Virus record (IMG/VR): IMGVR_UViG_2724678985_000016
Origin: a virus
Lineage: Duplodnaviria > Heunggongvirae > Uroviricota > Caudoviricetes
Length of the DNA stretch: 4,741 nt
Strand: one strand, 5' to 3'
Positions 1-4,295 of this stretch are shown here, piece after piece (the first letter of the stretch is position 1; every line of letters begins with the position of its first letter). The notes under the pieces are model-generated. The model was not told the DNA's origin. It did not search any database and saw only the letters and a list, made by a program, of their open reading frames with translations. A program made the translations under genes and the position numbers.

Positions 1-41
1 TATTATGCTTCCATCGGAAACGATGATCTGGCAGCCTGAGT

Positions 42-323
42 TCACAGATAAAACACTCTCCAGGTAACCCGGGGCGGTTCAAGTTTTTTGCGGGCATTTT
101 GCCAGTCCTTTCGTGCCTGTTCAGACGGGAATAACCCGTAGCCGGAGTTGTATACATAACCACTGGCAACCAGCTCTCTGGCAAGAATGCTCATCAGATA
201 TCTTGTCGCACCTGTTTTAGCTTCCAACTGTCGTAATGTCTCGCGACCGCTCTGGCGCACAAGTTCGACCACCTGCTCTTTAATTTTTTTCCCGCTCTTC
301 CTGTGTAAAAACTTTTGCCACAA
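42..323 (-). CDS. Small hypothetical protein (93 aa as drawn), possible helix-turn-helix, immediately downstream of the replication initiator gene
   Basis: Seen in sequence: ORF with stop at 42-44, 38-bp gap after the replication gene stop. Strong Shine-Dalgarno AAGGAGG lies upstream, but only 2 nt from the TTG at 321-323, so the true start is uncertain. Segment RETLRQLEAKTGATRYLMSILAREL looks HTH-like (inference). No family recognised. Confidence 0.45.
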   Translation of the reverse strand: MWQKFLHRKSGKKIKEQVVELVRQSGRETLRQLEAKTGATRYLMSILARELVASGYVYNSGYGLFPSEQARKDWQNARKKLEPPRVTWRVFYL

Positions 324-1327: not shown

Positions 1328-1829
1328 AATTCCATCCAGCTTTTTGTTGGTATTGCTGTCGATACGCAAGTTTGAAAGCAATTGCTTTTTCTATAAGTTC
1401 GTCAGTTTCACGATCCACTACGGCAGGATCAGCAAAAAGCATTCCGGACTCCACCACATCGCCATATTCTTTGTTTAACCCGGCGATCATGTACGTGATG
1501 CTTTTTCCGTCACTAATTTCACGATACAACCTGAAATCATTAATCCGGATAGCCTCCATAATTGCAGGCACTAGCGCCGTGAACTTTTCACGCTTATCCC
1601 TAGTGTCGATAGCCTTCCAGCGTTCGAATATCTTCACTCGATTAACGCCAAGCGCTCGCTGATCAACCGCGCCACCTTCATCTGTGACACGCTGAACATC
1701 GATGTTCGGGCGCTCTTTCAAAGCCCAGAATGATTCAGTGATTAATATCGTCGCCTGCTCCTGTGTCATTCCTGGTCGACATATCCAGGCATCCAGAGCC
1801 TCACGAGCCTGTTCAGGAGTGATTTTCAT
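1308..1829 (-). CDS. YdaT-family protein (prophage CII-like regulator / toxic protein family), 173 aa
   Basis: ORF with ATG at 1827-1829 overlapping the dicC-like stop by 17 bp (translational coupling). The segment KIFERWKAIDTRDKREKFTALVPAIMEAI matches my recollection of the conserved core of E. coli Rac YdaT (pattern RW...T..REK...L.PAI). Position immediately after the cro-like gene matches the ydaS-ydaT arrangement. Recalled, not searched. Confidence 0.65.
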   Translation of the reverse strand: MKITPEQAREALDAWICRPGMTQEQATILITESFWALKERPNIDVQRVTDEGGAVDQRALGVNRVKIFERWKAIDTRDKREKFTALVPAIMEAIRINDFRLYREISDGKSITYMIAGLNKEYGDVVESGMLFADPAVVDRETDELIEKAIAFKLAYRQQYQQKAGWNYEPSFC

Positions 1830-2040
1830 TGTTCAACCGCCCCGCCCGCTTCGTCTTACGATATTCGTCATAAACCTTGGGATCATACAGAAGCTCGCCG
1901 CCAGATGCCTCCTGTAGACGCATCGCGCGACCTTCAGGAACCAGCTCTTGCCATTGAGAAACAGCAGATGGGTCAACGCCAGCAGCTTTCGCTACTTTGG
2001 CTTTCGTACCGTAAAAATTAATTACGTCTGATTTAAACAT
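1813..2040 (-). CDS. dicC: Cro-like small DNA-binding regulator, DicC/YdaS family, 75 aa
   Basis: ATG at 2038-2040 preceded by GGAGG (TTGGAGGTGCG-ATG); the track ORF begins 9 codons further upstream but lacks an RBS there. Divergent from dicA across a 77-bp operator region. The C-terminal VPEGRAMRLQEASGGEL...YDPKVYDEY matches my memory of DicC/YdaS proteins. Confidence 0.75.
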   Translation of the reverse strand: MFKSDVINFYGTKAKVAKAAGVDPSAVSQWQELVPEGRAMRLQEASGGELLYDPKVYDEYRKTKRAGRLNNENHS

Positions 2041-2053
2041 CGCACCTCCAATA

Positions 2054-2067
2054 TTGAGTTTTCTCAA
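2054..2067. promoter_or_regulatory. Perfect inverted repeat TTGAGttttCTCAA, candidate DicA/DicC operator in the divergent dicC-dicA control region
   Basis: Seen in sequence: TTGAG(2054-2058)-tttt-CTCAA(2063-2067), 5-bp arms with a 4-bp spacer, about 14 bp upstream of the dicC start. A near-identical copy occurs at 2590..2603. Additional CTCAA half-sites lie at 2077-2081 and 2087-2091. A possible leftward -35 TTGACT (revcomp of 2091-2096) is present but its -10 is poor. Confidence 0.5.
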
Positions 2068-2117
2068 AGCTAATCACTCAAGGAATCTCAAGTCAAGGGT
2101 TATTAAGATATCTAAAT

Positions 2118-2525
2118 ATGAACGAGAAAACTTTAGGTCAACGCATTAGAGAAAGACGTAAGCAGGTAGGCTTAAGTCAAAACGGTTTAAGCAAAGCTGC
2201 TGGCGTATCTGGCTCATCAATTTCATTATGGGAAAGTGACCATACAGCCCCGCGTGGGCAAAATTTGCATCGCCTCGCCGAGGTATTGCAATGTTCACCA
2301 ACCTGGATACTGTTTGGCGACGAGGACAAAACACCAGCTCCCCCTGTTTCACTCGATAGTGCCTTAGACTTATCGGAAGATGAGTTAGAGATGCTGCGTT
2401 TGTATCGCGCACTTCCTAAATCAGAGCAACAAGCACAACTCAGCGAACTCCGCGCCCGCGTTGAGAATTTTAATCGCCTGTTCACCGAGCTATTAGAGGC
2501 TCGCAAACGCAACAAGCATCAATAA
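2118..2525 (+). CDS. dicA: DicA repressor (XRE-family HTH, cI/C2-like prophage repressor), 135 aa
   Basis: 135-aa ORF, the same length as E. coli K-12 DicA. N-terminal HTH (QRIRERRKQVGLSQNGLSKAAGVSGSSISLWE) and the stretch LHRLAEVLQCSPTWILFGDEDK plus C-terminal LSELRARVENFNRLFTELLEARKR closely match my recollection of DicA. Divergent from the cro-like gene. Confidence 0.9.
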   Translation: MNEKTLGQRIRERRKQVGLSQNGLSKAAGVSGSSISLWESDHTAPRGQNLHRLAEVLQCSPTWILFGDEDKTPAPPVSLDSALDLSEDELEMLRLYRALPKSEQQAQLSELRARVENFNRLFTELLEARKRNKHQ

Positions 2526-2582
2526 TCATCCCTTCACAAAATTTTAAAGCCTTACATTTCAATGTATTGGCTTTATCTTGCG

Positions 2583-2603
2583 CCAATACTTGAGTTTTCT
2601 CAT
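2583..2603. promoter_or_regulatory. Second operator-like site (gccaatacTTGAGttttCTCAt) downstream of dicA, upstream of the dicB-operon promoter
   Basis: Seen in sequence: 2590-2602 ttgagttttctca is identical to 2054-2066; the flanking ccaata is also shared (2048-2053 vs 2584-2589). The right arm is imperfect (CTCAt). The position is analogous to lambda OL relative to cI (inference). Confidence 0.45.
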
Positions 2604-2611
2604 CAAAAAAT

Positions 2612-2641
2612 CTTGACGAAAAATAATGAGAAAACTAAATT
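2612..2641 (+). promoter_or_regulatory. Candidate sigma70 promoter of the dicB operon (-35 TTGACG, about 18-bp spacer, -10 TAAATT)
   Basis: Seen in sequence: TTGACG at 2612-2617 and TAAATT at 2636-2641 (4/6 match to TATAAT), about 75 bp upstream of ydfA and immediately downstream of the operator-like site. Not experimentally positioned here. Confidence 0.35.
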
Positions 2642-2717
2642 ACCTCCATCAACACACCGCACGGTGTTCTCAGCAAACAGTTCCGCTACCCCGGCGTTAA
2701 GGGGAAATGAGGTCAGC

Positions 2718-2870: not shown

Positions 2871-3247
2871 TGAGGCTGACGATGGAATTTAAAGATTTAC
2901 CGTCTGATGTACAGAAAACAGCAGCTCATACATTGCATTCTGTGCTGCGAGAAATCGGGAAAGATATTGCAAGCGAGCCAGCAAAAGATCTGGCCCGGAA
3001 AATCAAGACCGCTTTCGTTGAGCTTTATAATGTTGGCACTGACTCTGAAACTGTCGAGACCAAGACCGTAAGTTCACCAATATTCTCACTTGAGCCAGGC
3101 GTATTAGCAGGTGAAATGTGCACCGAGATTTCCAGCGAACTGCTTCCGGTAATACGAGAAGCAATTTGCCGTCGCGGTTTGGATGGAAGTTACGATCATG
3201 ACGTCCTGCAAGTTCTCAGGACAATGGTGACTTCACTGGGGATTTGA
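2870..3247 (+). CDS. YdfB/YdfC-like protein encoded here as one continuous ORF (125 aa from ATG 2870, or 121 aa from ATG 2882)
   Basis: ATG at 2870 overlaps the ydfA stop (TGATG). An alternative ATG at 2882 has GAGG 6 nt upstream. It occupies the position of ydfB+ydfC in the K-12 dicB operon (recalled as two short ORFs of 42 and 72 aa); here no in-frame stop separates them. Confidence 0.6.
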   Translation: MRLTMEFKDLPSDVQKTAAHTLHSVLREIGKDIASEPAKDLARKIKTAFVELYNVGTDSETVETKTVSSPIFSLEPGVLAGEMCTEISSELLPVIREAICRRGLDGSYDHDVLQVLRTMVTSLGI

Positions 3248-3416
3248 TCCCTGCGTCCTCTAACCTTTTGATATAGCGGTCCTCCAAGAAGCGGTAAATT
3301 TTGTCGAAATCATCTTTCCCCTCTGGTTTATTCAGAGGATTACAGGACCCGTAAGTAGCGGCATACATTTCAACCGTTTTATCAAAAATATAAGAGACAA
3401 ATTCTTCTTTAGTCAT
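3216..3416 (-). CDS. Hypothetical acidic 66-aa protein encoded antisense to the dicB operon (moron-like), convergent with and overlapping the 3' end of the ydfB/C-like ORF
   Basis: ATG at 3414-3416 (minus) preceded by AAGAAGGAAATCTAT (SD AAGGA, 7-8 nt spacing). Protein MTKEEFVSYIFDKTVEMYAATYGSCNPLNKPEGKDDFDKIYRFLEDRYIKRLEDAGIKSPVKSPLS has a balanced, protein-like composition. The local sequence appears more AT-rich than its flanks. No homolog recalled. Confidence 0.4.
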   Translation of the reverse strand: MTKEEFVSYIFDKTVEMYAATYGSCNPLNKPEGKDDFDKIYRFLEDRYIKRLEDAGIKSPVKSPLS

Positions 3417-3691: not shown

Positions 3692-3749
3692 TTTCTGGTG
3701 ACGTTTGGCGGTATCAGTTTTACTCCGTGACTGCTCTGCCGCCGTTTTT
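3692..3749 (+). ncRNA. dicF: DicF small RNA (Hfq-dependent sRNA targeting ftsZ and other mRNAs), including 3' U-tract
   Basis: 3692-3743 (tttctggtgacgtttggcggtatcagttttactccgtgactgctctgccgcc) matches the 53-nt DicF sequence as I recall it, with a possible single difference at the last base. It lies between ydfB/C and dicB as in K-12 and ends in a GC stem plus T5. Confidence 0.75.
3707..3749 (+). terminator. Intrinsic terminator at the DicF 3' end (GGCGG...CCGCC stem followed by TTTTT)
   Basis: Seen in sequence: GGCGG 3707-3711 pairs with CCGCC 3739-3743, followed by g + TTTTT at 3745-3749. DicF is known to be generated partly by termination at its own terminator (established knowledge). Confidence 0.6.
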
Positions 3750-3918: not shown

Positions 3919-4107
3919 ATGAAAACGTTATTACCAAACGTTAATACGTCTGAAGGTTGTTTTGAAATTGGTGTCACTATCAGTAACCCTGTATTTACTG
4001 AAGATGCCATTAACAAGAGAAAACAAGAACGGGAGCTATTAAATAAAATATGCATTGTTTCAATGCTGGCTCGTTTACGTCTGATGCCAAAAGGATGTGC
4101 ACAATGA
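3919..4107 (+). CDS. dicB: DicB cell-division inhibitor (MinC-activating, ZipA-dependent), 62 aa
   Basis: ATG at 3919 with GAGGA 7 nt upstream. Protein MKTLLPNVNTSEGCFEIGVTISNPVFTEDAINKRKQERELLNKICIVSMLARLRLMPKGCAQ matches my recollection of K-12 DicB (62 aa). The track ORF 3814..4107 has a spurious N-terminal extension. Confidence 0.9.
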   Translation: MKTLLPNVNTSEGCFEIGVTISNPVFTEDAINKRKQERELLNKICIVSMLARLRLMPKGCAQ

Positions 4108-4295
4108 ATTCAGCATTTGCGCTTGTTCTGACAGTTTTTCTTGTTTCCGGAGAGCCAGTTGATATTGCAGTCAGTGTTCACAGGACAATGCAGGAGTGTA
4201 TGACTGCAGCAACCGAACAGAAAATTCCCGGTAACTGTTACCCGGTCGATAAAGTTATTCACCAGGATAATATCGAAATCCCGGCAGGTCTTTAA
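4104..4295 (+). CDS. ydfD: YdfD-like small membrane/lysis protein, 63 aa
   Basis: ATG at 4104 overlaps the dicB stop (ATGA), with AAGGA 8 nt upstream. N-terminal hydrophobic segment MNSAFALVLTVFLVSGEPV. Position and sequence fit ydfD of the dicB operon (recalled). Confidence 0.8.
   Translation: MNSAFALVLTVFLVSGEPVDIAVSVHRTMQECMTAATEQKIPGNCYPVDKVIHQDNIEIPAGL

Follow-up and report, generated by a model that had tools for sequence, protein, structure and literature searches.

Gene content of the locus

The stretch of DNA analysed here, referred to as the window (4741 nt), shows full identity to a lambdoid prophage that E. coli O111:H8 carries next to rspB, the chromosomal site of the cryptic prophage Qin in K-12. 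Its left part is read from the minus strand and holds a DUF977 open reading frame (42-323), a replication-initiator-like frame (362-1381) that has no Pfam match and is annotated in phage HannyBb as 'replication initiation O-like protein', a YdaT-family gene (1308-1829) and a cro-like gene with its ATG at 2040 (1813-2040; Pfam P22_Cro, E 3e-16). The 75-aa product of this last gene, an allele of dicC, has the accession WP_000476993.1, is 70% identical to K-12 DicC and matches the structure of P22 Cro (1rzs, E 2e-12). Divergently, on the plus strand, lies an allele of dicA (2118-2525; Pfam HTH_3, E 2e-15) encoding a 135-aa repressor, WP_001003381.1, with the recognition helix S-G-S-S-I-S-L-W and 57% identity to K-12 DicA over 127 aa. 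The differences from K-12 DicA and DicC are concentrated in the helix-turn-helix. Residues 1-72 of the DicA allele match the N-terminal domain of P22 C2 (E 8e-16), including structures solved on operator DNA (1adr, 2r1j, 3jxb), and the PDB matches end at residue 72. Beyond it, the conserved C-terminal segment of DicA proteins (LQCSPTWILFGDED...LPESEQ...RARV.NFN.LF.ELL.AR.R, invariant columns in the family alignment) is present. Pfam returned helix-turn-helix families only for the 135-aa protein and no S24 peptidase or autocleavage domain, and the S24 domain and Ala-Gly site that mark the LexA/CI-type autocleaving class are not found in it. Judged by its sequence, the DicA allele is a protein that would act on DNA like C2, yet lies outside the LexA/CI autocleaving class.

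Downstream of dicA, and in the same orientation, follow ydfA (2718-2870; Pfam DUF1391), a 121-aa open reading frame (2882-3247), the DicF RNA (3693-3744; Rfam, 72.5 bits), dicB (3919-4107; Pfam DicB) and ydfD (4104-4295; Pfam DUF1482), all on the plus strand. An earlier note, made from the letters of the window, had named dicA, dicC and the dicB operon, and these gene calls are borne out by Pfam, by Rfam and by the identity to K-12 DicA and DicC. RefSeq annotation also backs the assignments within the operon. With an HTH_3 repressor of about 135 aa, a divergent dicC of the P22_Cro family and a ydfA/dicF/dicB operon downstream in the orientation of the repressor gene, the locus has the make-up of the Qin family.

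Five related palindromes in the intergenic regions flanking dicA

The 13-mer TTGAGTTTTCTCA occurs in two mismatch-free copies (2054-2066 and 2590-2602), both on the plus strand and one on each side of the dicA-like gene, as the earlier note had claimed. Extended to 14 bp, the first copy is a perfect palindrome (2054-2067, TTGAG-TTTT-CTCAA); the second has another base at position 14 (2590-2603, TTGAG-TTTT-CTCAT). The ccaata flank that was said to be shared by both copies does not belong to the element: it touches TTGAG at the first site (2048-2053) and stands one base apart from it at the second (2583-2588), and relatives read CCAAAG, CCAGTA or TTAAATA instead. At the first site, the first two bases of ccaata overlap the Shine-Dalgarno sequence of the cro-like gene (CCTCC, 2045-2049).

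When the whole 4741-nt window was scanned for TTGAG-N4-CTCAA with at most two arm mismatches, six matches were obtained, five of which fall inside the 269 nt that make up both intergenic regions flanking dicA. The two sites named at the outset are thus real, but the inventory was incomplete, since it missed those at 2078-2091, 2103-2116 and 2626-2639. In the divergent region, the perfect palindrome at 2054-2067 is followed by TCAAG-GAAT-CTCAA (TCAAGGAATCTCAA, 2078-2091) and TTAAG-ATAT-CTAAA (TTAAGATATCTAAA, 2103-2116), each with two arm mismatches, the centres lying 24 and 25 bp apart. On the far side of dicA, the site at 2590-2603, with one arm mismatch, is accompanied at a centre spacing of 36 bp by ATGAG-AAAA-CTAAA (2626-2639, two arm mismatches), which as ATGAGAAAACTAAA is an inverted copy with 12 of 13 bases in common with the repeat. 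A third site upstream of 2590, comparable to OL3 of P22, was sought within two mismatches and was not found; a terminator-like hairpin lies there instead. Another candidate, CGAGAAAACTTTA at 2123-2135 (three mismatches, inside dicA), was considered as a fourth copy and rejected as a coding coincidence, because it is lost where the N-terminal codons differ (in Buttiauxella and in the relatives L099, L105 and L107).

The 13-mer repeat, the palindrome and the clustering of the five sites are all well beyond chance. The longest word common to the two intergenic regions after separate shuffling is usually 6-9 nt, and 2 of 2000 trials gave a common word of 13 nt or more; for a perfect TTGAG-N4-CTCAA, the expectation in a shuffled window is 0.006. 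Within 44.7 kb around the locus in the O111:H8 genome, the 12-mer TGAGTTTTCTCA is found nowhere but at the two sites of the 13-mer, and no further prophage copies of the sites were found there, save for a chance arm match within the host gene mlc.

The divergent control region

Two promoters can be placed between dicC and dicA. A leftward promoter for the cro-like gene, equivalent to PR, is predicted on the minus strand at 2067-2096, with the -35 element TTGACT at 2096-2091, an 18-nt spacer and the -10 element TAGCTT at 2072-2067. Its -35, read as GTCAAG, is the same in every relative and aligned to the annotated PR -35 of P22; its -10 is TAGCAT in most relatives and TAGCTT here. The promoter is absent from the output of the promoter scan, and TAGCTT is a weak -10. 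The promoter of dicA, equivalent to PRM, is assigned by homology to 2081-2109 on the plus strand (AGGAAT at 2081-2086, 17 nt, TAAGAT at 2104-2109): the annotated PRM of P22 has identical hexamers and spacing, and its transcript begins 4 nt before the c2 ATG. By this analogy the dicA mRNA probably starts at about 2115, 3 nt ahead of its ATG. The dicA gene has no Shine-Dalgarno sequence, which is consistent with a nearly leaderless mRNA.

The three related palindromes, matching at 10, 8 and 8 of the 10 arm positions, overlap both of these promoters. The first (2054-2067), at the position of OR1 and of K-12 'Oc', lies directly downstream of the leftward -10 and over the start of this promoter, which is predicted at about 2060. 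The second (2078-2091), at the OR2 and K-12 'Om' position, lies between the leftward -10 and -35 and also over the weak dicA -35; it aligned to P22 OR2 (TAAAGGAATCTTTA), and the relative L107 reads ATGAG-GAAG-CTCAA there. The third (2103-2116), at the OR3 and K-12 'Oa' position, overlaps the dicA -10 and the predicted transcription start, and several DicA specificity groups retain it. Its conservation could stem from the dicA promoter and start rather than from an operator.

The predicted promoter of the dicB operon

Downstream of dicA, a hairpin followed by UUUAUCUU (2545-2575, plus strand) has a folding energy of -11.3 kcal/mol (z = -3.5), and 0 of 200 shuffles were equally stable. The terminator scan did not call it; it is nevertheless probable that it ends dicA transcription and so insulates the next promoter. 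That promoter, equivalent to PL and to dicBp, was found by the promoter scan as TTGACG-17-TAAATT (2613-2641, plus strand; predicted start at about 2648), the only sigma-70-like promoter that the scan found in the region, in agreement with the candidate proposed earlier at 2612..2641. It aligned to the annotated early-left promoter of P22 and to TTGACC-17-TAATCT of K-12. The two downstream palindromes bracket its -35. The OL2-equivalent at 2590-2603, which aligned to P22 OL2 (TTAAGTTTTCTTCA), is separated from the -35 by 9 bp, and the OL1-equivalent at 2626-2639 lies over part of the spacer and the four leading bases of the -10. The latter is most likely the site from which RNA polymerase would be excluded from the dicB-operon promoter.

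From 2647 on, just past the downstream -10, the sequence is abruptly near-identical to K-12 again, and the specificity segment therefore spans from within dicC to the downstream promoter. An end at this point, as placed by the K-12 alignment, is as expected for the limit of an immunity module that is bounded by OR and OL. The leader of the dicB operon (2647-2717, plus strand) begins at this right-hand end; from 2648 to 2720 it folds no better than shuffled sequences (z = 0.28) and has no Rfam match at E values up to 1.

Conservation of the sites and covariation with the recognition helix

Loci related to dicA were gathered from genomes and viral contigs. The genome-contig scan yielded 14 loci; the best 80 viral-contig matches were near-identical, and the diversity came from scans with divergent homologues as queries. 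Conservation was assessed in 95 loci with the recognition helix xSS[IV]SLWE, drawn from E. coli alleles, Buttiauxella and viral contigs. In this set the core TGAGTTTTCTCA, of the class TGAG-N4-CTCA, shows 90% conservation or more at both the OR1 and the OL2 position, compared with 40-80% in the flanks. At the OR1 position this level of conservation is maintained in 20 distinct sequence contexts, and at the OL2 position the core is kept in 26 of 28; the OL1 position conserves TGAGAAA(A/T)CTAA. Buttiauxella ferragutiae has two perfect copies of TTGAGTTTTCTCAA amid otherwise unrelated flanks.

Other recognition helices go with other palindromes, each of them common to both sides of dicA: TTGTTGAG...TTAACAA with SHATISLW, TTGTTAGT...ACTAACAA with SHVSVSQW, which is the K-12 type, and TTAG-N6-CTAA with AHVTISQW. 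The operator thus changes with the recognition helix of the repressor across heteroimmune relatives. For a quantitative comparison, the OR1-position 14-mer of each group, anchored on the conserved -35, was compared with the OL regions of its own and of other groups. Across 18 groups, mismatches averaged 2.67 in the own OL region vs 3.95 in those of other groups, a result that none of 20000 permutations equalled. When the groups were collapsed to 12 distinct cores, mismatches were 3.25 vs 4.25 and 105 of 20000 permutations did equally well; these counts are indicative rather than exact probabilities, since the immunity groups are related. The helices of DicA and DicC also co-vary with each other, and because both proteins do so, the covariation does not tell DicA from DicC as the binder.

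Relation to known immunity systems

The published logic of dicA control rests on a resemblance to immC of P22, and this resemblance was verified anew by alignment. The P22 genome record annotates OR1-3 and the OL sites as C2-binding and also gives the promoters; on it, the upstream sites of the window fall on OR1, OR2 and OR3 and the downstream sites on OL2 and OL1. The alignment is base for base at the operator positions, the two -35 elements and the PRM hexamers, and a nearly leaderless repressor mRNA would be common to both systems. The 4-bp centre of the window's sites is A/T-rich, the kind that the P22 repressor favours (PMC4267663). However, the half-site is TTGAG in the window and T(T/A)AAG in P22, the repressor has 135 aa and no S24/RecA-cleavage domain whereas that of P22 has 216 aa, and P22 has OL1-3 whereas the window has no recognisable OL3. 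Lambda likewise has a divergent repressor/cro pair, a tripartite operator and, beyond the repressor gene, further operators at the early-left promoter, but the protein families and operator sequences differ, and neither cooperativity like that of CI nor OL-OR looping is known for DicA.

Qin of K-12 is closer still. The chromosomal site and the order dicC, dicA, ydfA, dicF, dicB, ydfD are the same, as are the length of the repressor (135 aa) and its conserved C-terminal half. K-12 Oc (TTGTTAGTCATAACTAACAA) stands at the position equivalent to 2054-2067, with the sequence-predicted Om and Oa 25 and 50 bp on, so that the divergent sites are 25 and 25 bp apart compared with 24 and 25 bp in the window. 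Downstream of K-12 dicA, ATGTTAGCTATAGCATACAA and ATGTTAGTCATGGCTAATCT surround the -35 of TTGACC-17-TAATCT at a distance of 34 bp, compared with 36 bp in the window. A comparison with the K-12 operators, which had been put forward as a check, thus finds Oc and the dicBp sites at equivalent positions. The helix-turn-helix is SGSSISLW in the window allele and SHVSVSQW in K-12, and the operator is TTGAG-N4-CTCAA in the window but TTGTTAGT-N4-ACTAACAA in K-12, whose outer TTG...CAA symmetry is absent in the window. Such a difference in both helix and operator presumably reflects a specificity distinct from that of K-12, which would make the two heteroimmune. Induction of K-12 Qin proceeds via the antirepressor Rem rather than by RecA cleavage. 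K-12 DicA is described as lacking an S24 peptidase/RecA-cleavage domain (PMC10448788).

Experiments on K-12 bear on both sides of dicA. K-12 DicA binds Oc in vivo, and single-base mutations in Oc abolish binding; dicC is repressed by DicA and dicA activated (Yun et al. 2012, PMC3441716). In the same in vivo assay DicA did not bind Om or Oa (PMC3441716). Deletion of dicA induces dicBp 22-fold (Ragunathan et al. 2023, PMC10448788), and repression of both dicC and dicBp by DicA, in other words the OR/OL logic, has already been published for K-12 (PMC10448788, PMC3441716); as cited in PMC10448788, this logic goes back to 1988 (Bejar et al. 1988). DicA and DicC of K-12 have been argued to form a bistable switch (PMC10448788).

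Discussion

Which proteins use the palindromes around dicA? We consider it very probable that they are operators of the DicA-like repressor in the immunity region of a Qin-type prophage, with a layout like that of P22 immC and a specificity of its own. The evidence consists of the sequences, their conservation and covariation and the positional homology to P22 and K-12, from which we infer binding, the preference of each protein for its sites and the transcription starts. The repressor combines a helix-turn-helix like that of P22 C2 with a C-terminal domain that is short and non-cleavable; most likely, its dimers would bind palindromes of 14 bp in which the core TGAG-N4-CTCA has an A/T tract at its centre. 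On 2054-2067 the repressor would block the cro-like gene together with ydaT and the replication genes behind it, whereas occupation of 2590-2603 and 2626-2639 would shut the rightward promoter of ydfA, dicF, dicB and ydfD. In full-length prophages this rightward promoter also serves exo, xis and int. A single repressor would in this way silence both early operons, comparable to CI at OR and OL in lambda. The OR/OL logic proposed in the earlier note is accordingly well supported at the level of comparative sequence, by positional homology to P22 and K-12, site conservation and covariation across immunity types, while its expectation that the sites predict the exact DNA contacts of this DicA variant was overstated.

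By analogy with P22 and lambda, 2078-2091 and 2103-2116 may serve autoregulation of dicA or repression by the cro-like protein. These two may not be DicA sites at all, because K-12 DicA bound Oc only. On the downstream side, the 36-bp spacing corresponds to about 3.4 helical turns, so that it is not obvious how the two sites would share one face of the helix for cooperative binding. The OR and OL sets lie 536 bp from each other.

It is possible, if somewhat doubtful, that the palindromes are mainly sites of the cro-like DicC, or that DicA and DicC divide the sites between them. In K-12, the DicC sites deduced from ChIP-seq flank dicA on both sides, with the palindromic motif TT(A/C/T)G...C(G/A/T)AA (PMC11430063), and, as described above, DicA bound Oc there and not Oa. 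In the relatives, the OR3-type site 2103-2116 hardly varies between DicA groups whose OR1-type palindromes differ but whose DicC helix, SAVSQW, is the same, and it changes when this helix changes. Moreover, its left half, TTAAG, is a half-site of the P22 type, and DicC of the window resembles P22 Cro. However, the residues before SAVSQW (DP, ER, DR, HP) also track the DicA groups, and the PRM-like -10 TAAGAT, expected to be conserved anyway, lies within 2103-2116. In addition, repressor and Cro of lambda, 434 and P22 read the same operators with differing preferences.

A particular division of the sites is rather unlikely, but conceivable: DicA could read TTGAG...CTCAA at 2054-2067 and 2590-2603 and DicC TTAAG...CTAAA at 2103-2116, with 2626-2639 (ATGAG...CTAAA) as a hybrid that both proteins read. 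It would fit because OR3-type sites hardly vary among several DicA specificity groups and because K-12 DicA was not found on Oa. If this were true, immunity could diversify via the repressor and OR1/OL alone, while the pair of Cro and OR3 stays fixed.

A host factor or another prophage factor, such as YjdC or H-NS/Cnu with their effects on K-12 DicA targets, is very improbable as the protein for which the sites exist, since a fixed specificity fails to explain palindromes that track the recognition helix of the linked repressor. Chance, or a recent duplication without regulatory role, is scarcely credible: although no more than two exact copies are present in the window and short words are readily shared within AT-rich intergenic DNA, few shuffles reproduce a shared word of this length, the core is kept in Buttiauxella and other relatives despite differing flanks, the sites are positionally homologous to P22 and K-12 operators, and the palindrome changes along with the immunity type.

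Operation of the sites by the DicA-like repressor, the reading that we favour, leaves the understanding of the switch mechanism unchanged; the sites are useful for annotation and for the design of experiments, and they are not surprising. The novelty lies in the operator set of a widespread immunity type, which is not in the searchable literature, where no occurrence of the 13-mer was found either. The set offers targets for the study of dicF/dicB silencing in Shiga-toxin-producing lineages such as O111. One paper states the location of binding at dicB in K-12 as unknown (PMC7567609), and the comparative set would place the DicA sites at dicBp throughout the family, in K-12 as well. The dicA region is present in about 800 of 5426 complete E. 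coli genomes (coverage of at least 80%), and the repressor of phage HannyBb is identical to that of the window.

An intact immunity region in a decaying prophage

At the left end of the window (1-323; L202, 18826-20321), the DUF977 gene is annotated as frameshifted and truncated in the source genome, where an IS1203 element lies directly left of the window, and in the O111:H- strain 11128 ydaT and the replication genes have been deleted too. These lesions indicate that the prophage is decaying, while its immunity region is kept intact. The same immunity type also exists in a deposited complete phage genome, since the 45-kb Escherichia phage HannyBb (L203; PP925841.1, 3900-4620) has a repressor identical to that encoded by dicA of the window (2118-2525, plus strand), along with the same five predicted operators (2054-2067, 2078-2091, 2103-2116, 2590-2603 and 2626-2639 in the window). 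In the HannyBb annotation the repressor begins 51 nt before the ATG taken as its start in this analysis, at a position that would fall within the operator region. Repressor genes 100% identical to that of the window are also found in two genome contigs, L003 and L004, and a third contig, L009, carries one nearly identical to K-12 DicA. All three have been assigned to metagenome-assembled genomes with the names Bacillota, Veillonella parvula and Collinsella, almost certainly through mis-binning of prophage contigs from Enterobacteriaceae.

Features of the control region and its flanks

The palindrome TTAAGATATCTAAA (2103-2116) adjoins the dicA ATG and also includes a PRM-like -10 element, TAAGAT. 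Among the window and related loci, it is nearly invariant in the DicA specificity groups that have the common DicC helix SAVSQW, and in loci with another DicC helix the palindrome at this position becomes TTAGCATTAGCTAA or TTAGAATTnCCTAA.

The entire control region is bracketed by a perfect 14-nt inverted repeat, I2, with one arm, ACGCCAGCAGCTTT (1976-1989), within the cro-like gene (1813-2040, minus strand) and the other, AAAGCTGCTGGCGT (2193-2206), within dicA. Both arms are in frame and encode the helix-turn-helix pentapeptide K-A-A-G-V, so that two divergent regulators have identical codons at this point. I2 is present in the window but absent from K-12, and it may reflect chance, shared ancestry or a substrate for recombination.

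Between the dicA stop codon and the downstream operators lies a hairpin (2545-2575) followed by UUUAUCUU. With a fold energy of -11.3 kcal/mol (z = -3.5), it is probably the dicA terminator; a simple terminator scan of the window did not call it. Further downstream, comparison with K-12 Qin reveals a sharp mosaic junction at 2647: the window is unalignable upstream of this position, whereas it is nearly identical to K-12 Qin from CATCAACACACCGC on. The conserved 70-nt leader beyond the junction does not fold significantly and has no Rfam match.

A 66-aa ORF on the minus strand (3216-3416), for which a Pfam search gave no match, is listed as a hypothetical protein in RefSeq. It lies upstream of dicF, is convergent with the dicB operon and overlaps the 121-aa ORF of that operon (2882-3247) at the latter's 3' end.
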